Positions 4,291-19,481 of a stretch of 21,177 nucleotides of DNA are shown in pieces (position 1 is the stretch's first letter; every line of letters begins with the position of its first letter). Under the pieces are notes generated by a model, which was given only the letters and a program-made list of their open reading frames with translations, did not search any database and was not told the origin of the DNA. The stretch is from IMG/VR virus record IMGVR_UViG_2531839102_000019, positions 1-21,177 of that record. One strand, written 5' to 3'. Origin of the DNA: a virus. Its lineage: Duplodnaviria; Heunggongvirae; Uroviricota; Caudoviricetes. Made by a program: the position numbers and the translations under genes.

Positions 4291-4380
4291 TTGAAGCGAG
4301 TCTTTAATATTCATTTAAAATGTCTAAAAAGATGTATTATTAAAAAGTTTAGCGTGTTATCTGAATACAGGATATCTTAA

Positions 4381-5115
4381 ATGAAGAGTATAGCAACACT
4401 GGTTGTGTGTGCAATCTCCGGGATTGCCTGTGTAAATTTATCTGCACATGCAGCAGAAGGAGAGCATACAATTTCTCTGGGGTATGCGCACTTTCAGTTT
4501 CCGGGACTGAAGGATTTTGTAAAGGATGCGACTGCTCATAACAGGGAGACTTTCAGTCATTTCGTCAACAGAAACTACTTTTCTTCATTGGGCGAATATA
4601 CAGATGGTCGGGTCAGTGGATATGAAGGCAAGGATAAAAATCCACAGGGCATTAATATCAGGTATCGCTACGAGATAACGGATGATTTTGGCGTTATCAC
4701 CTCTTTTACATGGACGCGTTCTCTCACTAACTCACAGACATTTATTGATGTGCAGTCAGCCGATCATACCAGGAAGATTAAGAATCCGGCAGCTTCTGCC
4801 AGAACGGATATCAGGGCGAATTACTGGAGTCTGTTAGCGGGGCCTTCATGGCGGGTTAATCAGTACATGAGTTTATATGCGATGGCAGGGATGGGCGTTG
4901 CTAAAGTTAGCGCTGACCTGAAAATTAAGGACAATATTAACAGTAGTGGCGGATTTTCTGAAAGCAACAGCACGAAAAAAACCTCCCTTGCGTGGGCTGC
5001 AGGTGCACAGTTTAACCTGAATGAGAGTGTTACACTGGATGTGGCTTACGAAGGTTCCGGCTCTGGCGACTGGCGCACGAGTGGCGTTACTGCTGGCATT
5101 GGCCTGAAATTCTGA
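4381..5115 (+). CDS. lom: Lom/Ail/PagC/OmpX-family outer-membrane beta-barrel protein
   Basis: N-terminal signal peptide (MKSIATLVVCAISGIACVNLSAHA); C-terminus LAWAAGAQFNLNESVTLDVAYEGSGSGDWRTSGVTAGIGLKF closely resembles the lambda Lom C-terminus as I recall it; lies downstream of tail genes as in lambda. Confidence 0.85.
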   Translation: MKSIATLVVCAISGIACVNLSAHAAEGEHTISLGYAHFQFPGLKDFVKDATAHNRETFSHFVNRNYFSSLGEYTDGRVSGYEGKDKNPQGINIRYRYEITDDFGVITSFTWTRSLTNSQTFIDVQSADHTRKIKNPAASARTDIRANYWSLLAGPSWRVNQYMSLYAMAGMGVAKVSADLKIKDNINSSGGFSESNSTKKTSLAWAAGAQFNLNESVTLDVAYEGSGSGDWRTSGVTAGIGLKF

Positions 5116-5139
5116 CCTGTATCCGGTAACCGTTTACTA

Positions 5140-5162
5140 CCCGCTGTGATGGCGGGTTTTTT
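5140..5162 (+). terminator. Rho-independent terminator after lom
   Basis: CCCGC-TGTGATG-GCGGG hairpin (extendable by an A:T pair) followed by TTTTTT. Confidence 0.7.
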
Positions 5163-5347
5163 ATTGCCCGTACAGGGCAAAAACCGTAAATTATGCGTGG
5201 GTGCCTTTCGGCTGATGGCTGGAGGGTGAACCTGAAGGCCTGATGTGGAAAGGCCCCGAGTCAACTTAACGTTAACCCGAGGCCCTAACACTTCGTACCT
5301 TAAGCAAGTAGAAGGTTAGCGCCTCTCTGTAAAAGGAGTCAAGCGCT

Positions 5348-5488
5348 ATGTCGCAAAAATCGCTTATCACCGTCACAATTTGCATGACGGTTATCTTCAC
5401 CATCTGGATGTTGCACGGTTCACTGTGTGAGTTCCGGCTGAATTTGTGGGGAGCGGAGTTTGCGGCGTTCTTACAGTGTAAGCAGTAG
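5348..5488 (+). CDS. Hok/Gef-family type I toxin-like small membrane protein (46 aa)
   Basis: AAGGAG 12 nt upstream of ATG; translation MSQKSLITVTICMTVIFTIWMLHGSLCEFRLNLWGAEFAAFLQCKQ has an N-terminal transmembrane helix and the SLCE-R...G-E-AAF pattern I associate with Hok/Gef. Confidence 0.55.
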   Translation: MSQKSLITVTICMTVIFTIWMLHGSLCEFRLNLWGAEFAAFLQCKQ

Positions 5489-5497
5489 GAAAACCGC

Positions 5498-5519
5498 GAC
5501 GGGGACGAGAGTCCCCGTC
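5498..5519 (+). other. Perfect 9-bp stem-loop with GAGA loop in the 3' UTR of the Hok-like ORF
   Basis: GACGGGGAC-GAGA-GTCCCCGTC; no following U-tract, so more likely an mRNA folding/stability element than a terminator. Confidence 0.4.
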
Positions 5520-5568
5520 AACTGGTTGCTGAGGTTCAGCCGATATGGCACCCGTTTCAGGTGAGAGA

Positions 5569-5946
5569 ATGAACGATAAAATTCTCTGGTATATGCAGCG
5601 TGTTGTGAGAAATTCCCGCAACCCTGAATTTATGAATGAAGTTAAAGACGCCTGCCTTAAAAAGCAGGCGTTTTGTTTTGAGGCACCTGATGGCTTTTTG
5701 GTGCTGCGTTCTGTGCTCAGTGCTGATGGTATCCCTTATGTTCTGGTGTTGCTGGGCGTGTGTACGGGGAGTAACAGCGTTGAGCGTTACCTGCCGGAGG
5801 TGAAGACATTAACCCATCTGGCTGGCGGACGCTGGGCTGAGTTCCATACGGCAAGGCGGGGATTTATCCGGCTGGGAAAACGACTGGGCTTTGAGCGAAT
5901 GCCGGATGATGAGGATGGCTTCATGGTGTTCAGGATAGCGGTCTGA
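5569..5946 (+). CDS. Hypothetical protein (125 aa)
   Basis: ATG preceded by GGTGAGAG; ORF ends just before the terminator at 6000; no motif recognised. Confidence 0.55.
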   Translation: MNDKILWYMQRVVRNSRNPEFMNEVKDACLKKQAFCFEAPDGFLVLRSVLSADGIPYVLVLLGVCTGSNSVERYLPEVKTLTHLAGGRWAEFHTARRGFIRLGKRLGFERMPDDEDGFMVFRIAV

Positions 5947-5999
5947 CTGCTACAGTTTTCATCATTGTGTTTAAACCAACATTGTAATTCACATTCTGA

Positions 6000-6021
6000 C
6001 CCTGCTCCGGCAGGGTTTTTT
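6000..6021 (+). terminator. Rho-independent terminator
   Basis: CCCTGC-TCCG-GCAGGG followed by TTTTTT, 18 nt upstream of the next start codon. Confidence 0.7.
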
Positions 6022-6039
6022 GTTATCCAGGGGGCCATT

Positions 6040-6693
6040 ATGGGTGGAAGTAAAGGCGGTGGTGATACCAAAGTAAAACCAACAGCAGCGCAAATAGCAC
6101 AGGAAGAAGTGGCCTGGAAAGGGTGGCAGGATTACAAAAATATCCTCCGCCCGGCAGAAGATAACTTCATGGAAAAGGTCGATGACCTTAACAGTGAACA
6201 GCAGTACGAAAATATTGCTGGCACAACAAATCTTGGTTATCAGAAACAGTTTGGTGAAGCGCGGAAGGAGCTTGCGGGTAATCTTGCTCAGTCCGGCGTT
6301 GACCCATCCAGTGGTCGTTTTAATGCGGTAATGGATGCAAATCAAAGCGACCAGGTGACCGGGCAGATTGACACAACCACACGGGGGCAGGTGTCGCAGG
6401 CAGATAAATATATTGCCGGGCTACAGGATGTTGCCGCGCTCGGTTCCGGTCAGAAGGCGGATGCGTTACAGAGTTTTAACTCTCTGGCAGACAGCAGTCT
6501 GGCAAAAGCCAAATCAGATGCACAGGCGGCGTTTACGAAACAACAGGGGCGCGCCTCTCTTGTTGGCGCTGGTCTTGGCGCGGTTGGGGCTTATGCAATG
6601 CATAAGGCTGGCGGTAGCGGAAGTGGAGGCTCTAAAACGCCAGGTACCGGCGCTAACGCTATTCAGAATCGGGCTCAGAACTGGAGGCTGTAA
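6040..6693 (+). CDS. Operon gene 1: Gly/Ala/Gln-rich protein with C-terminal glycine-zipper hydrophobic segment (217 aa); putative virion-associated
   Basis: ATG at 6040 after an AGGGGG-type ribosome-binding site; the longer 5965 start would run through the terminator; C-terminus LVGAGLGAVGAYAMHKAGGSGSGG; 2-nt gap to the next gene. Confidence 0.7.
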   Translation: MGGSKGGGDTKVKPTAAQIAQEEVAWKGWQDYKNILRPAEDNFMEKVDDLNSEQQYENIAGTTNLGYQKQFGEARKELAGNLAQSGVDPSSGRFNAVMDANQSDQVTGQIDTTTRGQVSQADKYIAGLQDVAALGSGQKADALQSFNSLADSSLAKAKSDAQAAFTKQQGRASLVGAGLGAVGAYAMHKAGGSGSGGSKTPGTGANAIQNRAQNWRL

Positions 6694-6695
6694 TT

Positions 6696-7142
6696 ATGGA
6701 GTATGGCAAATACGAAACTCTCGCAAGGGCTGGTTATTCAGGCGCTGGCAGGCCATGGGGTGACTGGGAAACCTCTGCCGCGTTGACACGCCAACAATAC
6801 GACGACTGGCGCACCAGATATTTGCCTCGTATAGCAAGGCTGGCTGACCTTGGTGAGAACAACAGTCTGATGAATGCACAGCTTGCCCGGGTGGGCGGCC
6901 TTGCCACTTCCAGTCTCCGTACAGCGCAGATGGCACAGGATAACCAGATGGCGAGATACGGGGTAAACCGCCCGGATAATCCTAACAGTAACACGCTGGG
7001 TTTACGTAATGCTCTGGCAATTGCTGGCGCGAAAAATGGTATCCGTGAAGCAGAGCAGGATCGCCAGATGAACATACTGACGGGTGCTTCTGCACCTGCA
7101 AGACAGCAACTGAGTGTTGGTGGACAACTGGTGTCAGCGTAA
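6696..7142 (+). CDS. Operon gene 2: hypothetical protein (148 aa)
   Basis: Start 2 nt after the upstream stop; Ala/Arg/Gln-rich, predicted helical. Confidence 0.7.
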   Translation: MEYGKYETLARAGYSGAGRPWGDWETSAALTRQQYDDWRTRYLPRIARLADLGENNSLMNAQLARVGGLATSSLRTAQMAQDNQMARYGVNRPDNPNSNTLGLRNALAIAGAKNGIREAEQDRQMNILTGASAPARQQLSVGGQLVSA

Positions 7143-7151
7143 GGGGGACAT

Positions 7152-7403
7152 ATGGGATACGGTTTACTGGATATTGCGAATCAGTCGCGGCGTGAGGCAT
7201 TACAGGGAATAAGTGATGCCGACAGACGACGTGAAGAAATTGAGGCTGTGAACAAGCAGATGGCGGCGCAACAGAAAGCGCAGCACAAGCAGAATATCGG
7301 TACGGGAATCGGTACGGGGGCGGCTATTGGCGCATCCGTTGGTGGTCCTGTTGGCGCTGTTGCTGGTGCAGTAATTGGCGGCATTGCTGGTTCTTTGTTT
7401 TAA
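7152..7403 (+). CDS. Operon gene 3: small protein with C-terminal glycine-zipper transmembrane segment (83 aa)
   Basis: AAGGGGGA ribosome-binding site overlapping the upstream stop; C-terminus GTGIGTGAAIGASVGGPVGAVAGAVIGGIAGSLF. Confidence 0.7.
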   Translation: MGYGLLDIANQSRREALQGISDADRRREEIEAVNKQMAAQQKAQHKQNIGTGIGTGAAIGASVGGPVGAVAGAVIGGIAGSLF

Positions 7404-7413
7404 GGAGTAGTGA

Positions 7414-8676
7414 ATGAGCGGATTTGCACAGGGGTTACTTGCAGGATTCAGCACCGTTGACCAGGCAATGACCCGTCGTAAGGAGCTTGGTTTGCGAGAA
7501 GCACAGCTTGCTCAGCAACAGAAAAATAACGAGCGCGATTTTGAATTTGCGCAGTCTCAGTTTGAACATAATAAAGACGTTGATCAGCGGAACTTTGATT
7601 ACAGAGCCAAAGTTGATGACCGCAATTACGCACTGCAGGAAAGGGAGTTTAACGCCAATCAGAATTACCGGAATGCGTCACTGGGTATGGAGCAGCAGCG
7701 ACTCCAGTTGCAGAAATACAACCAGCGACGGCTTGAGTATAACGATATGCTGGCGCGCGATCAGCCTGTGATGGCTGCGCTTGGAAAGGCTGTGGATGCT
7801 GGTGATCGGGATGCGGCAATGCATCTTTACGGGCAGTTGTCAGAGGGTAATCCGCTGAGGCTGATGGCGAATGATGGCTATGCTGCGAAAGCGGGGCAGG
7901 CCGTGAACAACCTGCAAAAAATCTTTGATGACAAGCCGGACAGGGCGATCGCTTCACTCAATACCCCGGAAAGTCTTGATGCGCTTTCCGGCGTGTTTGC
8001 CCCGGAACTGCAACAGCGTATTGGCATGCCCGATTCAACCGGGAAAAAGACAATAAAAGAGGCCAGGATTGGCAGTATCGTACCGGCACAGCAGGAAGGG
8101 TACGTACTTATCGGCCTTGATCTCACATACAGCGATGGCTCCACCGCACATAAACCTGTAACAGAATACGGCAGTGCGCACCCTGATGATCAAACCGTGC
8201 TGGCGATACCCGTTGATAAGGCTATCGCTCAGGTCAGGGATCGCAGCAAATTTGCAGAGATATCGAAAAATTATGGTTATTTTATGCCGAAGCAGCAGGG
8301 ACTTTCTCTGAAAGAGCTTCAGAAGGAAGCCAGCAAAGTAGTGGCTCAGGCGATCAAGGATGGCCGTGATGCTCAGTCTGCGAAGGATGAGTTTTTTGCA
8401 GCGCATGATTCACAGCCGCATCAACAGAAAATTCAGCAACAGAAAACCCAACAGCTTTTACAGAAGTGGCAGACGTGGGCGGCGGGCGATCCGGTTAAAC
8501 AGGAGTTTGTAAAAGAGGCTGCCGCCAATGCGCCTGCTTTGCTGGAACCTGGTCGTGAAAAGGAGGTGGAAATTTATTACCAGAATCACCTCCGGGATAA
8601 AAAGGCAGAGCATGAAAAGGCGCTGGATTATAGCGCTTCCGCATCTGCCGATAAGATCAGAAGCTGGATAAAGTAA
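7414..8676 (+). CDS. Operon gene 4: Gln-rich coiled-coil-like protein (420 aa)
   Basis: GGAG ribosome-binding site then ATG 10 nt after the upstream stop; Q-rich tracts (HQQKIQQQKTQQLLQKWQTW); no enzymatic motif recognised. Confidence 0.75.
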   Translation: MSGFAQGLLAGFSTVDQAMTRRKELGLREAQLAQQQKNNERDFEFAQSQFEHNKDVDQRNFDYRAKVDDRNYALQEREFNANQNYRNASLGMEQQRLQLQKYNQRRLEYNDMLARDQPVMAALGKAVDAGDRDAAMHLYGQLSEGNPLRLMANDGYAAKAGQAVNNLQKIFDDKPDRAIASLNTPESLDALSGVFAPELQQRIGMPDSTGKKTIKEARIGSIVPAQQEGYVLIGLDLTYSDGSTAHKPVTEYGSAHPDDQTVLAIPVDKAIAQVRDRSKFAEISKNYGYFMPKQQGLSLKELQKEASKVVAQAIKDGRDAQSAKDEFFAAHDSQPHQQKIQQQKTQQLLQKWQTWAAGDPVKQEFVKEAAANAPALLEPGREKEVEIYYQNHLRDKKAEHEKALDYSASASADKIRSWIK

Positions 8677-8721
8677 AAGTATGCGGCAGTAACGCGCTCC
8701 CCGTTAATATCGTTCACTTAC

Positions 8722-8748
8722 GCCCGACCATCGTGTCGGGCTTTTTTT
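8722..8748 (+). terminator. Strong rho-independent terminator immediately upstream of the giant ORF
   Basis: GCCCGAC-CATCGT-GTCGGGC perfect 7-bp stem followed by TTTTTTT; only 12 nt (containing GGAG) separate it from the ATG at 8761. Confidence 0.7.
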
Positions 8749-8760
8749 ACTGGAGTCTGT

Positions 8761-11700
8761 ATGGCTTTTTCAGATGAGCAGCGCCCTGAAGCGCAATTGG
8801 GTAACCAGAACCGCAGCAGCCTGAACATTAAGCAGCCGGGAGAAAATTACTGGCAGGATTTTTTCAGCAACCCGCAGAATGCCATTGATCACAGCACATC
8901 GTTCAGCCTCGGTGATGTATTGCCAACAATGGGTAAAGGTTTCGCCCAGTCCGTCCGGGGAACAGGGGAAATGGCCCGTGGACTCGGTGATGCGATGATT
9001 CAGAGCCCGGTAAAAACAGGGGTGCGTATTTTAAATGAGTTCAGCCGTATGGGGCTGCCGGGTGTCGCAACTGTGCAGGATATTTTTGCCGGTGGCAGCA
9101 GGGGGGCTGATGAGGTCATCGATACCCTGCCTGATGGCAAAAACGCGGTTACTGATACTGTCGGTAAAGGTCTGAAGGCAACCGGTAAGGCTGTCAGTGA
9201 TGGTGCCAAAGCCACTGATGAATGGCTGACCGGTAAGATGTCGCCGGGTGCAGTTCGTGCGCTGAATACGCCGATGACCGAAGGCTATAATGATTCTGCG
9301 GTCTGGGTGGCGAAGGGTGTAAACCTGATTGGTGCGCTTGTACCTGATATGGTTGCTGGCGGTGTGGCTAGAAAGGTGGGTGATGTCACACTGCGAAAAA
9401 TGCTGACCGCCGGGCTGGAGAAAAAATACATCGCGGCAGGGATGCAGCCGGAAAGAGCCACGGCACTGGCAGCAGAAGCTGTCGATAAAAAAATGCCGGA
9501 TTTATTCCAGGCGGGCCTGATCACCCATTCCACTGTAAGTGCACAGGGGCAGAGTGCAATGGCGGCAGCAGATGCTGTTCTTAATGCTGATTACTCTGAG
9601 CTGGCGCAGTCACCGAAATTTCAGCAGACGTTTTTGTCCATTGACGCCGACCCGCAGCACGCACAGCTTACTGATCGCCAGAAAATGGATCTGGCAAAAG
9701 AGCGTGTTGCCGATGAGGTGCGCGCGCAGCTGGCAACCGATCCTGAATTGCTGGCTGTGAATGCCATGGCGGCAAAACTGGGTGACGCACAACTGTTTAA
9801 TCTGGTGACACGAGGCACAGCGAAGACCGTTAAAAGCGGCATTGTCAGAAATGCCACGGAACAGGGGGCGATTAATGCGGCGCAGGGCGGCTATTCACGC
9901 TATCAGGAAAACACGGCATTGCGTGAGACCGCCGGAATGGGGGTGTCACCGTGGGAGGGCGTGGCTGACGCAACGATCGAAGGTGCAGCCTTTGGTGCTG
10001 CGATGGGGGCTCCATTCGGTGCGGTTGCCGGATATCGTGGCAGACGTCAGGCCGCAGAAGAAACCGCCATGCGTGATGCTGAAACCGTGCAGCAGGACGA
10101 CGCAGCCCCGCAACCAGAATCTGTTGATCCGGTGGCGCAGCAGCGTGAATCCATGCAGGGCATGAATCGCGAGCAGCTTCTGGAGCAGTATGCTGATGCG
10201 GATATGGCAACAGAGGGTGACGCATCCGCAGCTCATCGCCGGGAAGCTGCCAGCCAGTTGTTGAATGAACTGGACGAACAGGCGAAGCGACAGGCTGTGA
10301 TGAATGAGCTGAAGGCGAAGCCGCGTTCTGAACTGCTTGAGGAATACCGCAGACTCAGCCAGAAAGAGGGGCGCACCGAGACTGAAGAACAACAGTTTCA
10401 GGCAATACGAGAAGTCATTCGCCCACAACAGGAAGTGACGCCGGAAGCACAGTCACAGCCTGAAAATGCGGAGGATGGTAACGGGAGCATTTACCCGACG
10501 GTGCGGTTCCGGGACCCGAATGAAGTCCGCATTGAAATTAACGGGAATGGTGCGTCCAGACCAGCGGAACGCATTGAGAAGGTGCGCCCGGACAACCGTT
10601 ATTTCACGGATGAGAAAAGCGCCATGGGGAGTGATGTTTTCCGTAATGCCGCCGCCACCGGCCTGAAACCGTCCGTAGTGAAGAAAGGCGAGAATCAGTA
10701 TGCCGTTGAAATGGATAATCCTGCGTTCTCTGAAGATGTGGCAACGGAAACCATTAACACCCTGGCTGACGGAGAGCGTATTGCTGATGCTGACCCGATG
10801 GAGCAGCCCGCGTTCATGCGTGACCCGCGATTCCGTGGTTTCACGGGGGATGATACGGAGGTACAGGCCCGCCTTGCCCGTGGCAACGCGCCGACGGCAG
10901 AGGAGCTTGTACGTTCACAGATGGCTGAAGGTGATGCCGGTCCGACAGCACAGGAGTTAACTGAGCGTCCACGCCTGCCCGCTCCCGGCGATATTCATCC
11001 CGGACAGGGATATCCGTTACCGGGAGAAGTGGCGCGTACGCCGGATGAAAATCAGGCCGGACGTGGTGGTCGTTTTACCACAACCGGTGAGGTTAAGGGC
11101 CAGAGTTTCCAGAAAGGACAAGCTCCGGCACCGGAAAACGCCGCTGGTCGCCAGGGGGAAACACTCGAGGGTGACATGGTTCGTCGTGGTCTGCCGTCAC
11201 CGGATGCGCAGAACGCGACAGCACCGGTACGTGAAGGGCTACCGGCTCCTGACATTGCGCGTAATGTTCGTATGCCTCAGCCTGAATCACTTCCCCGCAC
11301 TGTACGGGACTCACTGCCTGAGCTTGCACAGCAGGCAGAAGTACGCCGACAGGCCGGAGGAAATCGTGACATCCCGCAGCCTGAGACAATCGCACCTGAA
11401 TCTGAAACAACTGTCTCTACTGACAGGGAAGCTACCGTGCGCGGAGGTGAAGTCAGGGGCAAAAAAATTGAAGACTTTGGTGAAGAAATTAAGGGCGCGG
11501 CAAAACACCGTTATGCACAGCTTGCTGAAACACTGGGTAAAACGCTGGAAGACAGGGATTATGCCACTCAGCCGCTGAGCAAACTGTTCCCGAAACCGGA
11601 CTACGCAAAACTGGCGAACGAAGGTGCTGATGCTGATACCCTGGCAATGATAGCGCTGTATCGTAGCGATATTCCGGCGAAGACGAAACACAATACGGCA

Positions 11701-14700
11701 GGCTGGGGGGAGAGCATAAAAAAAGTACGACACAGTGTATCGGAAATGCTGAACGGAACGGTCAGCGCGAAACGCCTCGCAGAATGGATGGAAGGTAGAA
11801 TGCCCTCCCGTTACGCGGATACCTGGCAACTGTTACGCACTCTGCCACCCTCACAGATGGACAGGGCTTCTGCTTATCGGGTGGTATCGGGTGTGTATCA
11901 GGCGGCAGGAGGGAAGCGTTACGATCCGCCACAGAAACTTTATTCACTGCGCAATAAGGACAATAAGGGTAGTAACCTCTTTTTCTCGGAAAGCAGGGAT
12001 GAATTACTGACAAAGGCGAAAGTCTGGTTTGCAGAGCAGGAGGAAAAATCACAGGCGAAAGGTGATGAAAAAACAGCGCCTTCACCGGATGACAAAATCC
12101 GCTTTGACGTTTACCGGAATACCCGCAGTGGCGATATTTTTATCGCTTACGGTAAAAACAAAATGCGGGTGAGAGGTGGCTTTAAGTCAGCCAGTGATGC
12201 GCGTAAGTACATTGATTCACATCGTGATGAGCTTGTTCGTCATGTGAAGGATATGCGGGAGATTTCGCGTGAGGAGCAGCGTAACGCCACCAACCGCGAC
12301 CGTACCGGACCAGAACGCCGTAAAGGGGATGTTTCACCGGAGCAGTTCAGTGATGCGTTTGGTTTCCGTGGTGTGCAGTTTGGTAACTACGTGGAAGGTC
12401 CGCGTCGTCAGGCTGATTTGAACCGGGCTTATGACTCGCTGCATGACCTTGCGGAAGTACTGAATGTACCGACAAAAGCGCTTTCCCTGAACGGTCGTCT
12501 TGGCCTGGCATTTGGTGCCCGTGGTAAGGGTAAGGCGGCGGCACACTATGAGTCAGGTGAGGTGGCAATCAACCTGACAAAAGGTAACGGACCGGGTGCG
12601 CTGGCGCACGAATGGTTCCATTCTCTGGATAATTATTTTGGTCGTTATGACGTTTCCAATGACGGGAAAATTACGTCAGGTGGCGACTTTATGACGGAAG
12701 CACAGCGTGTCAGGCGCATATTTAAAGACGGCAGGTATGTTGATGCTGAATATCCGGTACGTCAGGAGGTTTACGACGCTTTTAAAGGTGTGATTCAGGC
12801 CATTAAAAACAGTGACATGCCGCGTCGTTCAGCGCTTCTCGATGAGGTGCGCTCAAAACCGTACTGGTCAACGGATGTTGAAATGGCGGCGCGTGCCTTT
12901 GAGCGTTATGTTCAGGATAAAGCGCGTACGGCTGGCGTGGAGAATGATTATCTGGTCAATATCCGTAAGGCACCTGAGCACAACACAGATAACACCTGGG
13001 CTTATCCGACGAATGCGGAACTGGATGGCGGTATTCGTGAGGCATTCGATCACCTGTTCCGCACCCTGAAAACCCGTGAGACGGACAAGGGCGTTGCGTT
13101 TTATTCCCGTAAGGGCGTTACCCGTACACCTGAAGGTAATCTCATTTCGGATGTTAACCGTAGTGCGGAAGCTAAAGGCAGCCCGGTCCCGCAGGTTGAA
13201 GCGGTTGCCCGTGGCGTGATGAGCGGCATTAAGGACAGTGACCTGAAGGTCCGTGTGGTGAAGTCACAGAAAGAGGCTGAAGCGCTGGCGGGCGAATCGT
13301 TCGATGGTTACGGCAGGGTGCACGCATTCTATCGTCCGGATAAACGAGAAATTGTCCTGGTGGCGGATAACATCCCTGACGGGCGGACCGTACGCGAGAA
13401 GTTGCGTCACGAGATTATCCACCATGCCATGGAGCATGTTGTCACGCCAGCGGAATATCAGACGATTATCAAAACCGTGCTGAAAACCCGCGACAGTGAT
13501 AACGCCACCATCCGTGAAGCCTGGCGTAAGGTTGATGCGTCCTATGGTAAGGAATCACCGGAAGTGCAGGCGGGTGAATTTCTGGCACATATGGCGGAGA
13601 AACAGCCGAATAAATTCGTGGCGGCATGGGAGCGTGTTGTTGCCCTGGTCAAAGGGGTACTGCGTCGTACGGGGTTACTGAAGCCGACGGAACTGAACGA
13701 TATCAGACTTGTTCGCGAGACCATCCGTACGTTAGGCCAGCGTGTGCGGGAAGGTTACACGCCGCGTGAGGATGGCGCGGACGCATCGTCTCAGTACTCC
13801 CGTAGTGGTAAACCTGATCCGTTCAAAGTGCCGGAAGGTGAGGGCGAGCGTTATCGTGATGACCTTGCCAGAATGATGAAGTCTCTGCGCTCAACGGATT
13901 TAACGGTAAACATCGGGCGTACGCCGCCGGTATTGCGTCACCTTGGCGCACCAGATTTGCCGCTGGTTATCTCCCGCGACACTGTGCGTAAGGCCACCAA
14001 TGGTGTGAAACATGTGGTGCCGATGGATGTTATCGAGAGACTACCGGAACTGATGCACGATCCGGATGCAATTTACCGTTCCGCGACAGAAAGAAACGCG
14101 GTTGTGATGCTGCTTGATGCCGTGGATAAAAATGGTGATCCGGTGGTGTCAGCGGTACACATGAAGGCTGTCCGGTCGCGCCTGGAAATCAACAAGGTGG
14201 CATCTGTTTACGGTACGGAAAACGGGAAAAAACTGAAGAGTATGGAAATGACCGGTTTAACGTTGTACCGGAGAGAAAAATTAAGCCGCGATAACCTTCT
14301 GCACAGAGGGCTCCAATTGCCCAAAGGGGAACATTCTTATCGCGGCTCTGTTGATAAAATACTCTATCCTGAAGATATTCGCAAGGGGCCGTATTACTCC
14401 CGCACCAGCAGTCTGACGCCGGAAGAGACAATTGCATCCCGTTTTGTTCGCCAGATGCAGGATAAATTCCAGGTGCTGAAGGCGGTGCAGGAGAATATCC
14501 GTAAAACTGGCGGAAAAATAGATGACAGCAATAACGCCTATATGGCTGAAGAACTCTTCCACGGGAAGGCGGAAAACGACCTGAACGTAATGAAGGAGCG
14601 CTACGTTCAGCCGCTGGCCAAATTGCTGGCGGACTACAAAATTGCGCAGGCCGATCTGGATGAGTACCTCTACGCCCGTCACGCGCCGGAACGTAACGCG

Positions 14701-17139
14701 CATATTGCGAAAATCAACCCGAAAATGCCGGACGGCGGTTCGGGGATGACCAACGCGGAAGCGGCGGAAATCATGCAGCGTGTGCGTAACAGCGGCAAAC
14801 AGGCACAGTATGACCGTCTGGCAGGGATTATTGACGATATGCTGGCCCGTCGCCGTGAGATTATCCGTGAGGCAGGACTGGAAGAGAGCGGCGTGGTGGA
14901 TGCCTGGCAGAAAGCCTACCGTTACTACGTCCCCCTGAAAGGGCAGGATGTTGACGGTGTGGTGTCACTGCCACGTACAGGCAAGGGATTCACCATCGGC
15001 GGGCGTGAAAGTAAGCAGGCCATGGGGCGTGCATCCCGCGCACAGTCTCCTTCCACTCAGGCGATACAGGATTTGAGTGAATCGCTGATCCGCAATCGCA
15101 AAAATGAAGTGGGTAACGCCTTCCTGAAACTGGTACAGGATAATCCCGACAAGGATTACTGGCAGGTATTCAGTGATGACAGACCGGATACCATGCGTGT
15201 GATTGCAGAGCGCAAGGACCAGGAAACTGGTGAAACCATTCGCGAAGTTGTCGAGCGTCCGGTGGCGATGGCAATGATGGCAGACCGGTACTTCACCACC
15301 AAAAAGAACGGCAAAACGTACTACATCAAACTCCATGATCCGCGCCTGATGCGTGCGATGAAGAATATGGGACCGGAAACCAGTAACGCAGTAATCCGTA
15401 CGCTGGGGAAAGTTAACCGCTTCCTGGCAACGGTGAACACGTCGTATAACCCGGAATTCCTGGTCAGTAACTTCATCCGTGACGTGCAGACAGCGGTGAT
15501 GAATCTGAAGGCGGAGCAGGGAAGGAGCGACGGCAAACTGAAAGGGCTGGATAACTTATCCGCACTGGCTGTGGTGAAAGACAGCCGTTCTGCTATGTCA
15601 GCCGTATACGCCAGTCTGCGTGGCAAAAACCTCACGGGCAAAGGTGCGCAGTGGCAGAAGGTGTGGAAAGAGTTTGTTGAGGACGGAGGTAAAACCGGCT
15701 GGTTTAACATGGGTGACCTTGAAGGCCAGCAGAAGGAAATGGATCGCCTTGTATCGCTGGCGAAGGGAGGATGGAAAGGCCAGAGTATCGGTGCATGGAA
15801 TTCGTTCCTGAACCTGGTCGAGGATGCCAACGGTGCGGTTGAAAACGCACTGCGTCTGTCAGCTTATAAACACGCCCGTGATGCCGGTTTGTCACGCCAG
15901 CAGGCGGCGTCTCTTGCCAAAAACATGACGGTGAACTTTAACCGTCGTGGTGAGCAGGGGGCGCTGATGAACTCGCTGTACATGTTCGCCAACGCCAGTA
16001 TTCAGGGAACGGCAAATCTGGTGAGAACGCTCGGACATCTTAATGGTGAGGGACCTTTACTGGAGCGCCTTCGCTGGAAGAATCTGAATGTTCCGCAGAA
16101 AATCGCGCTTGCCGCTGTGGGAGCAGGTTATCTGCTTGGCTCGCTTAACCGCAGTGTGGCGGGTGAGGATGATGACAGGGTTAACTGGTATGACAAAGTA
16201 CCGTCTCATGTGAAAGAGCGTAACCTCGTCATCATGAAATCGATGTTCGGGGGCAAGGCCGGTGAGTACTGGAGTATTCCTCTGCCTTACGGGTACAACG
16301 TTTTCTTCCTGCTTGGTCACACAGCCGAAGGGGTGGCGGCGGGCGACCTGACCGCTTCACGTGCTGCCGGTAATGTTGTTGGTGGTGTGCTTGGGGCATT
16401 CAGCCCGATCGGCAGTGAGACGTCGGAAACGTTGTCCGGGGCATTGCTGAAAAACGCAGCGCCAACCATTCTGCGTCCGTTTGCTAACCTTGCCATGAAC
16501 GAAAACTTCATGGGGGCGCAGATTTACCAGGAGAACATGCCGTTTGGTACACCGAAACCGGACAGCCAGCTGGGAAGACGTTCAACGCCTGAGGCGTACA
16601 AGTCCTTTGCGTCCTGGCTGAATGCGTTCTCTGGTGGCAGCCAGTACCGCTCAGGCGCGGTGGATGTCACGCCGGAATCACTGAAATACTGGATTGACTA
16701 TATCTCTGGTGGTACAGGGCGTTTTATTGCCAAATCGACGGATGCGGCGGTGAAATCGCTGAATGGTATTGATATACCGGAGCAGCAGGTGCCTTTCCTG
16801 GGGAAAATTTCAGGTGAGGTGATGCCGTATGCTGACCAGCAGAAGATGTATGACCGGATGACGGAGGTTGCGCAGTACCACGCAGAGCTGAAGAGTCTGA
16901 CCGGTGCAGAAAGAACGGCGTTCATTGACGAGAACAACGGAAAATTGTCGATGAACGGGCTTATGCAGGATACCCGGAAGAGACTGAAGGATTTGCGCAA
17001 ACAGCGCGATGCCATTTATGCCGACAGTTCTCTCAGTCTGGCGCAGCAGGCGGCGATGGTGAAATCGGTAGAGCGGGATATGAAGGTTGCCGTGGATCGC
17101 TTTAACCGCGAGTACAACAAAAAAGTGGGAGTGGAGTAA
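8761..17139 (+). CDS. Giant multi-domain protein (2,792 aa) with two zincin-like HExxH motifs; putative virion-delivered polyvalent effector
   Basis: Uninterrupted 8,379-nt frame; GGAG ribosome-binding site; HEWFH at aa 1283-1287 (nt 12607-12621) and HEIIHHAMEH at aa 1550-1559 (nt 13408-13437); Pro-rich low-complexity linker around aa 730-890; Gly/Ala-rich hydrophobic segments near both termini; no P-loop or signal peptide recognised. Confidence 0.9.
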   Translation: MAFSDEQRPEAQLGNQNRSSLNIKQPGENYWQDFFSNPQNAIDHSTSFSLGDVLPTMGKGFAQSVRGTGEMARGLGDAMIQSPVKTGVRILNEFSRMGLPGVATVQDIFAGGSRGADEVIDTLPDGKNAVTDTVGKGLKATGKAVSDGAKATDEWLTGKMSPGAVRALNTPMTEGYNDSAVWVAKGVNLIGALVPDMVAGGVARKVGDVTLRKMLTAGLEKKYIAAGMQPERATALAAEAVDKKMPDLFQAGLITHSTVSAQGQSAMAAADAVLNADYSELAQSPKFQQTFLSIDADPQHAQLTDRQKMDLAKERVADEVRAQLATDPELLAVNAMAAKLGDAQLFNLVTRGTAKTVKSGIVRNATEQGAINAAQGGYSRYQENTALRETAGMGVSPWEGVADATIEGAAFGAAMGAPFGAVAGYRGRRQAAEETAMRDAETVQQDDAAPQPESVDPVAQQRESMQGMNREQLLEQYADADMATEGDASAAHRREAASQLLNELDEQAKRQAVMNELKAKPRSELLEEYRRLSQKEGRTETEEQQFQAIREVIRPQQEVTPEAQSQPENAEDGNGSIYPTVRFRDPNEVRIEINGNGASRPAERIEKVRPDNRYFTDEKSAMGSDVFRNAAATGLKPSVVKKGENQYAVEMDNPAFSEDVATETINTLADGERIADADPMEQPAFMRDPRFRGFTGDDTEVQARLARGNAPTAEELVRSQMAEGDAGPTAQELTERPRLPAPGDIHPGQGYPLPGEVARTPDENQAGRGGRFTTTGEVKGQSFQKGQAPAPENAAGRQGETLEGDMVRRGLPSPDAQNATAPVREGLPAPDIARNVRMPQPESLPRTVRDSLPELAQQAEVRRQAGGNRDIPQPETIAPESETTVSTDREATVRGGEVRGKKIEDFGEEIKGAAKHRYAQLAETLGKTLEDRDYATQPLSKLFPKPDYAKLANEGADADTLAMIALYRSDIPAKTKHNTAGWGESIKKVRHSVSEMLNGTVSAKRLAEWMEGRMPSRYADTWQLLRTLPPSQMDRASAYRVVSGVYQAAGGKRYDPPQKLYSLRNKDNKGSNLFFSESRDELLTKAKVWFAEQEEKSQAKGDEKTAPSPDDKIRFDVYRNTRSGDIFIAYGKNKMRVRGGFKSASDARKYIDSHRDELVRHVKDMREISREEQRNATNRDRTGPERRKGDVSPEQFSDAFGFRGVQFGNYVEGPRRQADLNRAYDSLHDLAEVLNVPTKALSLNGRLGLAFGARGKGKAAAHYESGEVAINLTKGNGPGALAHEWFHSLDNYFGRYDVSNDGKITSGGDFMTEAQRVRRIFKDGRYVDAEYPVRQEVYDAFKGVIQAIKNSDMPRRSALLDEVRSKPYWSTDVEMAARAFERYVQDKARTAGVENDYLVNIRKAPEHNTDNTWAYPTNAELDGGIREAFDHLFRTLKTRETDKGVAFYSRKGVTRTPEGNLISDVNRSAEAKGSPVPQVEAVARGVMSGIKDSDLKVRVVKSQKEAEALAGESFDGYGRVHAFYRPDKREIVLVADNIPDGRTVREKLRHEIIHHAMEHVVTPAEYQTIIKTVLKTRDSDNATIREAWRKVDASYGKESPEVQAGEFLAHMAEKQPNKFVAAWERVVALVKGVLRRTGLLKPTELNDIRLVRETIRTLGQRVREGYTPREDGADASSQYSRSGKPDPFKVPEGEGERYRDDLARMMKSLRSTDLTVNIGRTPPVLRHLGAPDLPLVISRDTVRKATNGVKHVVPMDVIERLPELMHDPDAIYRSATERNAVVMLLDAVDKNGDPVVSAVHMKAVRSRLEINKVASVYGTENGKKLKSMEMTGLTLYRREKLSRDNLLHRGLQLPKGEHSYRGSVDKILYPEDIRKGPYYSRTSSLTPEETIASRFVRQMQDKFQVLKAVQENIRKTGGKIDDSNNAYMAEELFHGKAENDLNVMKERYVQPLAKLLADYKIAQADLDEYLYARHAPERNAHIAKINPKMPDGGSGMTNAEAAEIMQRVRNSGKQAQYDRLAGIIDDMLARRREIIREAGLEESGVVDAWQKAYRYYVPLKGQDVDGVVSLPRTGKGFTIGGRESKQAMGRASRAQSPSTQAIQDLSESLIRNRKNEVGNAFLKLVQDNPDKDYWQVFSDDRPDTMRVIAERKDQETGETIREVVERPVAMAMMADRYFTTKKNGKTYYIKLHDPRLMRAMKNMGPETSNAVIRTLGKVNRFLATVNTSYNPEFLVSNFIRDVQTAVMNLKAEQGRSDGKLKGLDNLSALAVVKDSRSAMSAVYASLRGKNLTGKGAQWQKVWKEFVEDGGKTGWFNMGDLEGQQKEMDRLVSLAKGGWKGQSIGAWNSFLNLVEDANGAVENALRLSAYKHARDAGLSRQQAASLAKNMTVNFNRRGEQGALMNSLYMFANASIQGTANLVRTLGHLNGEGPLLERLRWKNLNVPQKIALAAVGAGYLLGSLNRSVAGEDDDRVNWYDKVPSHVKERNLVIMKSMFGGKAGEYWSIPLPYGYNVFFLLGHTAEGVAAGDLTASRAAGNVVGGVLGAFSPIGSETSETLSGALLKNAAPTILRPFANLAMNENFMGAQIYQENMPFGTPKPDSQLGRRSTPEAYKSFASWLNAFSGGSQYRSGAVDVTPESLKYWIDYISGGTGRFIAKSTDAAVKSLNGIDIPEQQVPFLGKISGEVMPYADQQKMYDRMTEVAQYHAELKSLTGAERTAFIDENNGKLSMNGLMQDTRKRLKDLRKQRDAIYADSSLSLAQQAAMVKSVERDMKVAVDRFNREYNKKVGVE

Positions 17140-17147
17140 CAGAACAT

Positions 17148-17169
17148 GCCCCGTACGGAAGTGCGGGGC
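17148..17169. other. Stem-loop between the convergent plus and minus transcription units
   Basis: GCCCCGTAC-GGAA-GTGCGGGGC (one G:U pair); no U-tract on either strand. Confidence 0.35.
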
Positions 17170-17266
17170 TGATTAAGAAATAAACACTCATTGACCTGTA
17201 ATAACTGGAGCTATTAACATATAGTCAGAAAGAGCATTTCATGTGATACAGAGAGCCGATTTATGT

Positions 17267-17608
17267 TTAATGAAGAAAAGTTGCGCAAATGGCAGCGTAT
17301 TTGCTGAAAAAGCATGGCGGATCTATGCGTTTCATTAAGCTGAAGCAGCAACGGTAATTGCCGTGCCAATCATCAGCCCAACTGGTTAACCCTGGCGCAT
17401 CAATGCTAGGCATATAGACGCTTGCAGTGTGGTAGCCCTTATCGTTATCAATGCTGGCAACGTGCTCGCCGTTGTATGCGCTCAGCGTGTCTAGGACACT
17501 ATAAAACTTTCCTCCGGCTGCCCTGAAATCCTTTACAGCCTTCACAAGACGATTCCACGCTTTTTCCTGTTCTGGCGTCAGGTCGATTAATTCCTGCAAA
17601 GTTGCCAT
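17267..17608 (-). CDS. Hypothetical phage accessory protein (113 aa)
   Basis: ATG at 17608 with AAGGAA ribosome-binding site, 1 nt after the stop of the upstream gene; the longer 17698 start lacks a ribosome-binding site and would overlap that gene. Confidence 0.6.
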   Translation of the reverse strand: MATLQELIDLTPEQEKAWNRLVKAVKDFRAAGGKFYSVLDTLSAYNGEHVASIDNDKGYHTASVYMPSIDAPGLTSWADDWHGNYRCCFSLMKRIDPPCFFSKYAAICATFLH

Positions 17609-17609
17609 T

Positions 17610-17828
17610 TCAGTTTTCCTTATATGGGTTAATTTTATTGTGCAGTGTGTTGAACGACGCCCATACCACGTCGTTATACAACTCAATAACTGGTTCAATT
17701 ATTTTCCCGATAAACCAGACCAGTAATAGCGGGGATATTGGTATCATCAACACGATAAACAGAATGAGAAACAAAAATTCTGTCGCTCTACTTTTTCGCG
17801 GATATTTTTTTCTAAATAATGTGACCAT
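17610..17828 (-). CDS. Small predicted membrane protein (72 aa)
   Basis: Hydrophobic core FLFLILFIVLMIPISPLLLVWFIG; directly abuts the downstream gene. Confidence 0.45.
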   Translation of the reverse strand: MVTLFRKKYPRKSRATEFLFLILFIVLMIPISPLLLVWFIGKIIEPVIELYNDVVWASFNTLHNKINPYKEN

Positions 17829-17915
17829 TCATTACCGCCCTTTCGGGCGGCCTCCCGATGTTCTGAGGGTGCAGAAATCCCTCCGGTTAAGGATTAAATT
17901 AATAATATGATGTAA

Positions 17916-18104
17916 TTAATTCATGTAGTGCGAACCATACTCCCAATGATGGCTAATTATTTCGGCAGCATCTCCATAACATAAATTATCCGGTTTCATA
18001 TCTTTGTCTTGCCCGAATTTACTTTCAACAAAATCATCAATATCCTGATGCGGGGCATTGGCAGGGACTGAAATTACAGTTGTCACTATTATTGTTCGAT
18101 TCAC
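17916..18104 (-). CDS. Small hypothetical protein (about 62 aa, GTG start)
   Basis: AGGAGG 8 nt upstream of GTG at 18104, embedded in the end of the Ea22-like gene; weak support. Confidence 0.4.
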   Translation of the reverse strand: MNRTIIVTTVISVPANAPHQDIDDFVESKFGQDKDMKPDNLCYGDAAEIISHHWEYGSHYMN

Positions 18105-18108
18105 TTTC

Positions 18109-18945
18109 TCACCCTCCTTTGATGCGAATGCCAGCAACACGTAGTGCATGTTCTAAGTCAGCCAGATAAAGCCAGCAGCCATTTTCTTTAGGTATCATGA
18201 CGTGGCGCTCATCATCATTTATCGGATGTCCATATCGAAGGCCGTAGCGAGTCGGCAAATGAACTTCCCGCGTTTCCAGCTCTTTAACGCGTTCCTCCAG
18301 TTCGTAGACCCTGCATTGTTCTCTATCATCAATCAGATATAACCCAAGACATTCGCTTTCTACCCAACCGCCAAAATCATGATCGTAACGCTCACATGAA
18401 AACTCACCGTCACCGTCCTTTGTTGGAATGGTGTAACTATCTAATGGGCCACCATATGTCGGCACATTTCCCAATGTTGGATGCTCAATCCACATGAAAA
18501 ATGTACGTCCGGTTATTGGGCAAATATCTGGCCGCCATTGGTTACGAACAGCCTTGGTTTCGGATAATTCTTCAGCGTGTTGTTTTACTTCCTCAAGCTC
18601 AACACGCAGCTTCCTAACCGTAAGAGCAATTTCCTCGTTCACCTGGTCGCGGCTTTTGATGTATTGCTGGTTTCTTTCCCGTTCATCCAGCAGTGCCAGC
18701 ACGGTAGCCGGATTGGCTGCGGCGATGAATTCAGCATTGGCCTGCTGTTCCATTTGGAAATCTTCATCGAAACCGCTTTCAGGATGTGCTCCTTCAATTC
18801 TGCAAATGGGAATATATCCAGCAGCCTCGCGATGAATTAGTGCATCATCACCATCAAATCGGTTCTCTCCATATTCGAGCGACCACTCACCACGCGTTGC
18901 TTTTTCTGCCTTTTCACGCAGTACCTGATAGTTAATCTCGCTCAT
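18109..18945 (-). CDS. Ead/Ea22-like phage protein
   Basis: N-terminus MSEINYQVLREKAEKATRGEW and internal LLDERERNQQYIKSRDQ match the lambda Ea22 family signature as I recall it; GGAG ribosome-binding site upstream of ATG at 18945. Confidence 0.85.
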   Translation of the reverse strand: MSEINYQVLREKAEKATRGEWSLEYGENRFDGDDALIHREAAGYIPICRIEGAHPESGFDEDFQMEQQANAEFIAAANPATVLALLDERERNQQYIKSRDQVNEEIALTVRKLRVELEEVKQHAEELSETKAVRNQWRPDICPITGRTFFMWIEHPTLGNVPTYGGPLDSYTIPTKDGDGEFSCERYDHDFGGWVESECLGLYLIDDREQCRVYELEERVKELETREVHLPTRYGLRYGHPINDDERHVMIPKENGCWLYLADLEHALRVAGIRIKGG

Positions 18946-19216
18946 TTTTCTCTTCGCTCCGGTATACAAGAATTACAACGTCACCTCTGCTAATTACGCG
19001 AGCTGGATCTCCTGGCTCCATGCTGTCAATCCCGAAGGCTTCGGAAAACGCATTCATTGCCTTCTGGCGTTGATCCTGCTTACGGCATTTATTCCATTTT
19101 TTCAGTAACAACAGCGATAGCCACCGCCCGGCGCAGAACATAATGTAAAAATAACCAAGAAGCGCCAGACCTGTGTTGAGGGTCGTATCGATCGTTATAG
19201 TGGTGTCTATGCTCAC
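18932..19216 (-). CDS. Small hypothetical membrane protein (94 aa)
   Basis: Transmembrane segment LALLGYFYIMFCAGRWLSLLLL; start overlaps the upstream stop by 4 nt and its end overlaps the Ea22-like start. Confidence 0.6.
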   Translation of the reverse strand: MSIDTTITIDTTLNTGLALLGYFYIMFCAGRWLSLLLLKKWNKCRKQDQRQKAMNAFSEAFGIDSMEPGDPARVISRGDVVILVYRSEEKNERD

Positions 19217-19477: not shown

Positions 19478-19481
19478 GGTT

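Follow-up and report, generated by a model that had tools for sequence, protein, structure and literature searches.

A gene block of short-tailed Stx-type lambdoid phages, ending in a cysteine-free giant gene, probably encodes their internal-virion ejection proteins

We analyzed a window of 21,177 nucleotides (nt; IMG/VR record IMGVR_UViG_2531839102_000019, positions 1 to 21,177), which was found to be the right end of a Shiga toxin (Stx) prophage of the Sp5/933W/phi24B type, i.e., of a short-tailed lambdoid phage, and which terminates within the host gene ymdF. The subject is a block of genes comprising one for a protein of 133 amino acids (aa), genes for four small proteins termed g1, g2, g3, and g4, and a gene for a giant protein termed g5. 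We conclude that the block probably is the internal-virion (ejection, or "pilot") protein module of the phage, with the 133-aa gene being part of it. For close homologues it is established that the proteins are made late, that they are present in the virion outside of the visible capsid and tail, and that two of them are needed for infection but not for packaging. As judged by sequence, the set does not appear to be a member of the P22, T7, or N4 families of ejection proteins. The giant protein was already proposed to be an ejection protein (doi 10.64898/2026.04.10.717836), while the role of the small proteins is put forward here.

The genes of the block are the following:

5545-5946, + strand: 133-aa protein (Sp5 ECs1237, by numbering ORF75; phrog_610), conserved first gene of the module, 3 cysteines (Cys)
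6040-6693, + strand: g1, 217 aa (ECs1238, by numbering Sp5 ORF76; phi24B gp51; phrog_611), rich in Gly, Ala, and Gln, no Cys
6696-7142, + strand: g2, 148 aa (ECs1239; phi24B gp50; phrog_596), no Cys and no recognisable domain
7152-7403, + strand: g3, 83 aa (ECs1240; phi24B 86-aa frame; phrog_594), database label "bacteriocin"
7414-8676, + strand: g4, 420 aa (ECs1241, Sp5 ORF79; phi24B gp48; phrog_601), no Cys
8761-17139, + strand: g5, the giant, 2792 aa and about 305 kDa (ECs1242, Sp5 ORF80; phi24B gp47; phrog_616), phage-type polyvalent protein, no Cys

An earlier reading of the stretch from its letters (the sequence-only reading) had described a translationally coupled operon of five genes, g1 to g5. 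The gene coordinates, the gaps of 2, 9, and 10 nt between g1, g2, g3, and g4, and a Shine-Dalgarno site before each gene were confirmed, and g4 and g5 are separated by a spacer of 84 nt. The tight gaps with ribosome-binding sites are thus real, while strict coupling is a step beyond the spacing, and synteny adds the 133-aa gene as a sixth member.

The DNA shares about 97% identity with the right end of Sp5, a prophage of E. coli O157:H7 Sakai, and phage ArgO145 is 91% identical across the block. The window was matched by 186 Stx-type phage records, and the taxonomy lines of matching phages name Sepvirinae. The proteins are 79-98% identical to their phi24B homologues. The genes g1 to g5 correspond to ECs1238-ECs1242 of Sp5; ORF79 is stated to be ECs1241 and ORF80 to be ECs1242 (PMC5155283), and ORF75, ORF76, ORF77, and ORF78 were assigned from the consecutive numbering. 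The virion proteome, deletion and expression data used below are published and were obtained for homologues, not for this prophage.

In phi24B, cryo-electron microscopy was combined with virion proteomics, and gp47, the giant, was found to be abundant and invisible in the map, from which the authors propose that it is an encapsidated ejection protein (doi 10.64898/2026.04.10.717836). With 10,962 peptide-spectrum matches (PSMs) gp47 is the second most abundant virion protein; gp48 (g4) had 1,634 PSMs, gp51 (g1) 523, gp50 (g2) 129, of which 83 came from the batch sample, and the 86-aa frame (g3) 13 (doi 10.64898/2026.04.10.717836). When normalised by length to the portal, the four larger proteins were at or above the level of a 12-copy protein in the batch sample, which is a rough estimate from spectral counts; these counts imply internal protein amounting to roughly 3-6 MDa. 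In gel slices the giant peaked in the top slices (doi 10.64898/2026.04.10.717836), and we therefore read it as being mostly unprocessed in the virion.

Genetic data are available for Sp5, in which in-frame deletions were made (Mondal et al., 2016; PMC5155283). Loss of ORF79 (g4) or ORF80 (g5) resulted in 0 plaques and 0 lysogens, with wild-type amounts of DNase-protected DNA and heads of normal appearance (PMC5155283). Loss of ORF76 (g1) strongly reduced infectivity, and lysogens were obtained from concentrated lysates only (PMC5155283). By quantitative PCR, expression of the giant gene was found to be linked to induction, while lom was expressed constitutively (Riley et al., 2012; PMC3342100). 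The sequence-only reading had named abundant transcripts in uninduced lysogens as a finding that would refute it, and expression on induction and not in the lysogen speaks to that point.

These data also bear on the view, given as an alternative in the sequence-only reading, that the block is a lysogenic-conversion, bacteriocin, toxin, or defence module expressed from the prophage. The databases label the 83-aa protein "bacteriocin," and the block lies beside the morons lom and hok and is flanked by terminator-like hairpins, which would favour this view. The match behind the label, to Bacteriocin_IIc, scored 19.8 bits against a Pfam cut-off of 27.1 and covers a generic glycine zipper only; g3 has virion genes as neighbours and its homologue is found in virions, and we rejected it as a class II bacteriocin. 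A PADLOC scan gave no meaningful match and an NCBIfam scan was uninformative. Given that the giant gene is linked to induction rather than expressed in the lysogen, that the products are in virions with two of them essential for infectivity, and that Vibrio phage D80 keeps the module amid late and structural genes only, we consider this view very improbable and already largely refuted; the defence or toxin alternative was left without support.

The gene order is strongly conserved. Viral contigs were searched with an alignment of a distant g4 subclade, and 55 loci were returned, which are mostly Aeromonas prophages judged by the names of the g1 homologues. In essentially all 55 the order was nozzle, needle, 133-aa homologue, g1, g2, g3, g4, and giant open reading frame (ORF), with needle proteins ranging from 259 to 2165 aa and giants from 1800 to more than 3300 aa. 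The same order was found in Aeromonas phage phiARM81mr, where four of the five proteins are deposited as "putative virion structural protein" (by annotation only), and in Vibrio phage D80, save for an HNH endonuclease gene inserted on the opposite strand. The position of g2 was kept in all related loci, and the 133-aa homologue lay directly before that of g1 in 54 of the 55 loci as well as in phiARM81mr and D80. The module normally abuts the needle gene in these relatives; in the window, only an island at 3389-5500 intervenes. By synteny, the unit accordingly comprises six genes, with 5545-5946 included.

For the 133-aa protein no match was found in Pfam, PDB, or PADLOC, and its reading frame has no row in the available portion of the phi24B proteome table. 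Its local likeness to P22 gp14 (YLPE[VI][KR]...G), which falls on identical residue positions in both, is weak and not significant (hhalign probability 2.5%). The protein is a candidate assembly factor in the position held by P22 gp14 and T7 gp13.

In phiARM81mr, 1.86 kb without annotation separate the g4 homologue from the giant of 3190 aa (positions 17683-19540 of our locus L059). The window giant did not match this giant in phmmer, while it matched those of other Aeromonas loci. The conserved N-terminal region may reside in this unannotated stretch as a split or frameshifted gene.

The second line of evidence is the avoidance of cysteine. The proteins g1 to g5 contain no Cys in 3660 residues, while the nozzle contains 8, the 205-aa protein of the island 4, and the 133-aa protein 3; by our arithmetic the chance of 0/3660 at a background of 1% Cys is about 1e-16. 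Across the 55 loci the giants have 22 Cys in 115,633 residues, and the module relatives have 0.00-0.10% Cys compared to 1.36% in the nozzles. No Cys at all occurs in the giant of phiARM81mr (3190 aa) or in that of D80 (3066 aa). The same was found for the canonical ejection proteins, with no Cys in P22 gp7, gp20, and gp16, T7 gp15 and gp16, and N4 gp50 (3500 aa), gp51, and gp52, and one in T7 gp14. The small proteins encoded just upstream of the canonical sets do contain Cys (P22 gp14 has 4, T7 gp13 has 3), and the window repeats this pattern gene for gene, with the Cys-containing 133-aa protein at the gp14 position. A plausible explanation is that exit through a narrow channel followed by refolding in the oxidising periplasm does not tolerate disulfide formation. 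By term counts, we found no mention of cysteine in a review of ejection proteins (PMC8954989) or in the 2026 N4 paper (PMC13434306).

The third is a resemblance to P22 gp7. The last 41 residues of the g3 family aligned to the last 42 of the gp7 family with an hhalign probability of 93% and an E-value of 3e-7, scoring 45.5 compared to 18.9 for reversed and 15.6 ± 1.4 for column-shuffled alignments. Residues 3-50 of g1 aligned to gp7 residues 22-70 with an E-value of 5e-4 and a probability of 32%, scoring 32.2 against 22.6 reversed and 16.9 column-shuffled; mature gp7 is annotated to begin at residue 21, after removal of a 20-residue leader. Both scores exceed those of the controls, which argues against a likeness of composition only. 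In our reading, g1 and g3 appear to carry features of the two ends of gp7, and membership of the gp7 family is not claimed.

The g3 family (window 7389-7403) and the gp7 family (P22, positions 10044-10058 of our locus L060) both terminate in a conserved ...[S/G]SLF. Speculatively, the terminal aromatic residue recalls the C-terminal signal of outer-membrane beta-barrels; BamA has been proposed as the receptor of these phages (doi 10.64898/2026.04.10.717836).

The small proteins had been described as Gly/Gln-rich, with two of them ending in a glycine zipper. Gln is indeed raised in all four (7.4-10.2%) and Gly in g1 to g3 (10-18%), with g4 having 5.7% Gly only. The zipper was borne out for g3, in which a polar, helical N-terminal half is followed by a C-terminal glycine zipper, or hydrophobic segment, at residues 52-83, terminating in ...GSLF; the terminal SLF is kept across the family, and the segment resembles Gly-zipper_YMGG with an E-value of 8e-6, which is below the Pfam cut-off. 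It did not strictly hold for g1, in which a weaker Gly/Ala segment at about 170-190 is followed by a polar tail. AlphaFold2 (AF2) with a multiple sequence alignment of 36 sequences gave a predicted local distance difference test score (pLDDT) of 34.8 for g1, i.e., no stable monomer fold. In g4, which the sequence-only reading had called coiled-coil-like, a Gly-rich N-terminus and a small beta domain (VTYxDGSTAxKPVT) are conserved, the C-terminus is mosaic, and one helix of about 124 residues is predicted; the single-sequence AF2 model showing this helix is mediocre (pLDDT 66.7). A search of 1.84 billion proteins yielded 75 representative clusters for g4, which makes its family a small one. A candidate fusion of g3 and g4 (representative P0133) has a frameshifted, Cys-containing tail without a zipper and was not counted as evidence.

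The larger claim of the sequence-only reading, which made the small proteins the giant's partners in ejection, in an internal core, or in a membrane channel, is the best-supported one when virion presence, Sp5 genetics, synteny, Cys avoidance, and gp7 likeness are taken together. Several observations weigh against it. The delta-ORF79 and delta-ORF80 heads of Sp5 were not labelled by an antibody against the tail fibre, and the authors described the two as "tail formation" genes (PMC5155283). ORF77 and ORF78 (g2 and g3 by numbering) are absent from the Sp5 mutants reported as defective, and the individual deletion of both is unconfirmed (PMC5155283). For phi24B, the authors discounted gp48 ("transcription factor?") as well as the "bacteriocin" homologue as contamination, going by annotation alone (doi 10.64898/2026.04.10.717836); set beside the Sp5 genetics, this dismissal of gp48 looks wrong. 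Absence of Cys is not exclusive to ejected proteins, as the needle and the N4 capsid protein also have none. Apart from that of g3, the hydrophobic segments are weak, with those of g1 and of the giant, both Gly/Ala segments, reaching Kyte-Doolittle values of 0.9-1.4. Canonical sets carry a peptidoglycan hydrolase, while no lysozyme or transglycosylase domain was found in the block proteins by Pfam, NCBIfam, or PHROGs.

Homology searches belong to the same side of the account. The Pfam family P22_gp7 (PF25688) did not match g1, g3, or 36 members of the g1 family, Inj_translocase (PF16928, P22 gp20) did not match g4 or 26 family members, and neither T7_gp14 (PF24072; hhalign probabilities at most 0.5%) nor DUF2824 matched any window protein or family member. 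When aligned by hhalign, the g4 family and P22 gp20 reached a probability of 1%, and the g2, g4, and 133-aa families gave nothing significant with P22, T7, or N4 proteins; nor did phmmer and BLASTP of all window proteins with the ejection proteins of these three phages. PDB and Foldseek searches did not reach an ejection-protein family by sequence or by fold: g4 had no Pfam or PDB match, PDB sequence searches with the giant, g4, and g1 as single sequences and with g4, g1, and 133-aa profiles were empty, and Foldseek of the g4 model gave nothing below an E-value of 0.09 in PDB and family members only in BFVD. Finally, actual ejection, membrane insertion and channel formation by the five proteins are proposed only.

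The main tension of the ejection reading is the missing tail-fibre labelling. Mutants in the P22 ejection proteins reportedly still assemble their tails. The labelling result is what favours regarding the block as tail-assembly or completion genes, as did Mondal et al. (2016), so that g4 and the giant would build or attach the short tail as a plug, a portal-nozzle scaffold, or an energy-using factor, with ejection not required; the delta-ORF79 and delta-ORF80 lysates contained DNA-filled heads lacking the label, and the block genes adjoin the tail genes. However, the giant and the four small proteins are abundant in virions and absent from the resolved phi24B tail and capsid, and the Cys-free signature and the parallels to P22 gp7 fit ejected proteins. 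The hint of an AAA+ ATPase (COG1483), cited in 2016, was not reproduced by Pfam or NCBIfam, and we rejected it. A role in tail assembly in place of ejection is on this evidence quite unlikely. The two can coexist if the internal core is needed for stable tail attachment, and such a need in this lineage could account for the lack of labelling.

The giant protein was found to consist of conserved ends around a variable middle:

9274-10329, + strand: N-terminal conserved region, aa 172-523, matched in about 96% of related giants and in Vibrio phage D80
11908-13077, + strand: variable cassette, with LPD5 at aa 1050-1199, a zincin-like region with HEWFH at aa 1283, and LPD1 at aa 1360-1439
13168-13749, + strand: second HExxH region, aa 1470-1663, with HEIIH at aa 1550, in about 98% of related giants
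14005-14274, + strand: MuF_C, aa 1749-1838, Pfam E-value 1.4e-17
14413-17130, + strand: C-terminal conserved region of about 900 aa, aa 1885-2790, with LPD38 at aa 2475-2680, Pfam E-value 2e-48

All four Pfam domains scored above cut-offs of about 27 bits (LPD5 153.6, LPD1 83.5, MuF_C 64.2, and LPD38 165.4 bits), whereas a CLCA_X-like match at aa 1181-1436 reached 148.5 bits against a cut-off of 260. The LPD5-HExxH-LPD1 cassette is present in only about 17% of related giants. Similarity to the D80 giant was found in the second HExxH region (E-value 9e-27) and in the C-terminal region (E-value 7e-224), and PHROG matches were between the C-terminus and the C-termini of other giants of 3400-3900 aa. 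Only the conserved ends hold moderately hydrophobic segments, rich in Gly and Ala in the N-terminal region (aa 181-199 and 406-424) and in Gly in the C-terminal region (aa 2448-2466, 2514-2532, and 2535-2553). In place of a peptidoglycan hydrolase domain, only the zincin-type HExxH motifs are present.

With at least two LPD/effector domains and a place among late virion genes, the giant is classed as a phage-type polyvalent protein. Such proteins were defined computationally as packaged and injected early effectors (Iyer, Burroughs, Anand, de Souza, and Aravind, 2017; PMC5512222), in which the zincin peptidase is described as an autoprocessing hub, MuF_C as a predicted RNase class of the BECR fold (PBECR), and LPD38 as restricted to phages (PMC5512222). 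The giant resembles them in its LPD5, LPD1, MuF_C, and LPD38 domains, its two HExxH motifs and its late-gene setting, and differs in that the Sp5 homologue is also essential on a permissive host and that its conserved ends flank a variable centre. The strongly conserved ends together with the essentiality suggest a structural role in delivery besides that of effector cargo.

The polyvalent architecture with its variable central cassette could instead mean that the giant serves only as an effector, injected against host defences or for host takeover as are P1 DarB and T4 Alt, with the small proteins only recruiting or organising it inside the head and the DNA conduit being formed by something else. 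A DarB-like PHROG match at aa 2350-2680 points in this direction, and so does the mosaic junction between the C-terminus of g4 and the N-terminus of the giant, where the two termini may interact. On permissive hosts, phages can do without injected antirestriction cargo of the P1 DarB kind. Unlike such cargo, the g4 and g5 homologues are needed on K-12, where both deletions were completely non-infectious. Moreover, the conserved late region shows no further candidates for ejection proteins, and g3 and g1 have membrane-type glycine zippers like P22 gp7. We find it unlikely that the block encodes cargo and packaging helpers only.

The junction just mentioned lies at 8300-9360 and is mosaic among Stx phages. 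Identity to Sp5/phi24B is 40-62% in about the last 120 aa of g4 and 84-93% in the first 200 aa of the giant, compared to 95-100% for both proteins outside of it, and in many Stx2a phage records megablast similarity is lost beyond about window position 8341. Either a cassette exchanged by recombination or two termini that interact and co-vary could account for it.

Two hairpins and the putative translation signals lie within the module:

5998-6023 (stem 5998-6017), + strand: terminator-like hairpin with T-run, just upstream of g1
8722-8748 (stem 8722-8741), + strand: GC-rich terminator-like hairpin with T7, between g4 and g5
6030-6034 (GGGGG), 6683-6687 (GGAGG), 7143-7148 (GGGGGA), 7403-7407 (AGGAG), and 8752-8755 (GGAG), + strand: Shine-Dalgarno-like sites

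The first hairpin (-16.5 kcal/mol, z -4.8) is nearly identical in Sp5, ArgO145, and phi24B and supports ATG 6040 rather than TTG 5965 as the start of g1. The second (-13.8 kcal/mol, z -4.2) was not equalled in folding by any of 200 shuffles. Its Sp5 copy carries a compensatory change from A-T to G-C, and a strong equivalent precedes the giant in 41 of 48 distant loci, with stem changes between loci visibly compensating; there, the spacer between g4 and the giant is about 133 nt, while the remaining genes are tightly packed. Because of this conservation, and of the long spacer amid tight packing, we regard the hairpin as a selected feature. The sequence-only reading took it as a terminator gating entry into the giant gene, of which the hairpin itself, real and conserved, was upheld. 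Late transcription in lambdoid phages is normally antiterminated by Q. A gate is for that reason less likely, and an on/off role unlikely; most likely the hairpin adjusts how much of the small proteins is made relative to the giant, either through a more stable upstream mRNA or through partial termination. In the lysogen, constitutive moron transcription could be kept out of the module by the hairpins that follow lom and precede g1.

The start of the phi24B giant in GenBank (HM208303 49148-49192; positions 8649-8693 of our locus L003) adds the N-terminal residues MPGHCAGFFYGVC, which are the translated hairpin. The only two Cys of the phi24B giant fall inside this extension, and the GenBank start is probably mis-called and over-extended.

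Among known systems, P22 is closest in layout. The window order parallels P22 10 (nozzle)-26 (needle)-14-7-20-16, with a small Cys-containing protein that is in neither case a virion component, as far as known, followed by tightly packed Cys-free genes. Sizes are similar for two of the proteins (229 and 471 aa in P22, 217 and 420 aa for g1 and g4), gp7 and g1/g3 share an N-terminal GGKGG...AQ motif and a C-terminal glycine zipper with a ...SLF end, and both sets are needed for infectivity and not for packaging (here shown for the g4 and g5 homologues and in part for g1). P22 differs in having three proteins rather than five, with the gp7 features seemingly split over two genes here, in having a last protein of 609 aa compared to 2792 aa, and in that tail-fibre labelling is lost in the Sp5 mutants. 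Members of the ejection-protein class are matched by size and synteny, not by sequence (Swanson, Hou, and Cingolani, 2022; PMC8954989).

N4 is the closest working analogue. It also packages into its virion a Cys-free giant with several domains and a length of about 3000 aa or more, the small partners of which are encoded alongside and equally lack Cys, and N4 gp50 likewise bears a zincin peptidase domain. In N4, gp51 builds a complex in the outer membrane and gp52 a tunnel in the periplasm, and gp50 traverses a channel of about 35 Angstrom in beads-on-a-string fashion (PMC13434306), which is the obvious model for the movement of a 305-kDa protein. The present module differs in that it lacks an RNA polymerase domain and detectable sequence similarity, carries LPD5, LPD1, MuF_C, and LPD38 as payload, and has four small partners rather than two; being temperate and lambdoid, an Stx phage should need no virion polymerase. 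As in T7, the internal virion proteins are encoded after the tail genes, with Cys-free gp15 and gp16 and a helper, gp13, with 3 Cys, and a division of labour between outer membrane, periplasm, and inner membrane can be drawn (PMC8954989). Unlike in T7, the T7_gp14 family was not matched, a transglycosylase domain was not found, and the phi24B report describes no ordered core stack.

From these comparisons we propose the following mechanism. Upon release of the needle at the cell surface, the proteins would leave in extended form by way of the narrow portal-nozzle channel and, on refolding within the envelope, would make up a conduit across it. The glycine-zipper proteins g1 and g3, resembling the two ends of gp7, would insert into a membrane, and g4 would supply the periplasm-spanning part through its helix of about 124 residues. 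The giant would anchor by the conserved region near its N-terminus and by the roughly 900 aa at its C-terminus that include LPD38, and would bring a variable enzyme payload into the cell, comprising two zincin-type peptidase motifs, LPD5, LPD1, and the MuF_C RNase-fold domain; it would be a polyvalent early effector and the counterpart of the giant RNA polymerase of N4. The complete absence of Cys would fit unfolded crossing of the oxidising periplasm. The 133-aa protein, Cys-containing and not seen in the available virion rows, would be an assembly helper at the position of P22 gp14, and the hairpin before the giant would determine, via mRNA stability or partial termination, in what ratio the small proteins and the giant are made. 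In its strongest form, the proposal is of a five-protein ejectosome, unrelated in sequence to those of P22, T7, and N4, that feeds a polyvalent enzyme of about 305 kDa, free of Cys, by way of the tail channel into the cytoplasm, with Cys avoidance being a general marker readable from sequence; we give this an even chance of being right.

The genes surrounding the module in the window are the following:

406-2109: nozzle gene, upstream of the block
2106-3374: needle (tail-tip) gene, upstream of the block
3389-5500: island with a GC content of about 40-42%, which includes lom and a Hok/Gef-family ORF

After the needle gene follow two small genes, lom, the Hok/Gef-family ORF, the 133-aa gene, and then g1 to g5. 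The two small genes, of 92 and 205 aa (3389-4290, GC about 40%), are absent from the Aeromonas and Vibrio relatives, and the whole island (p92, p205, lom, and hok) appears to be an insertion specific to E. coli phages. An accessory island separating the block from the tail genes had been noted before; the island is real, and it is not purely accessory since gp54, the homologue of the 205-aa protein, was detected in phi24B virions, where the authors suggest a location at the needle tip and a candidate role in receptor binding (doi 10.64898/2026.04.10.717836). The small Hok/Gef-family ORF (5348-5488, + strand), annotated "MokW-like" in ArgO145, lies between lom and the module. Just downstream of it a strong terminator-like hairpin is found on the - strand (5520-5497), an arrangement that would be expected of a type I toxin paired with an antisense RNA; in this region Rfam gave no match at or above a gathering score.

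Between the giant gene and ymdF, as in Sp5, lie genes of the - strand that take up about 3.8 kb (17140-21003) and include an Ant antirepressor, a TraR/DksA-family gene, and ead/Ea22-like fragments. In the ArgO145 record attR lies almost directly 3' of the giant gene. An Rfam match to sRNA-Xcc1 (RF02221) was found in the - strand region adjoining the antirepressor gene (20152-20240, - strand; 69.1 bits compared to a gathering score of 53, E-value 6e-11).

In the literature searched we found no statement of a role for the four small proteins, of a module of six genes, of the signature of absent Cys, or of a link to gp7, and "ejection protein" combined with Stx or 933W gave no match. PHROGs 611, 596, 594, 601, and 616 are all labelled "unknown function," and the four small proteins are annotated "hypothetical" or, wrongly, "bacteriocin," with two of them having been set aside as contaminants in the only virion proteome. 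The ejection-protein class, i.e., the podophage ejectosome, is known; the present module differs in having five virion proteins and a helper, in its sequence families and in its polymerase-free polyvalent payload.

Short-tailed Stx phages spread Shiga toxin genes among E. coli. If the proposal is true, these phages would deliver an essential protein payload along with their DNA, and the module would be a second natural system besides N4 in which a protein of about 300 kDa passes a channel of a few nanometres. The reading would also explain the retention of a giant gene that costs 8.4 kb of a 60-kb genome. Regarding the six genes as one ejection module would provide concrete targets for blocking phage transfer, and the Cys-free signature, if general, would be a cheap flag for ejection proteins in podophage genomes where sequence similarity fails.

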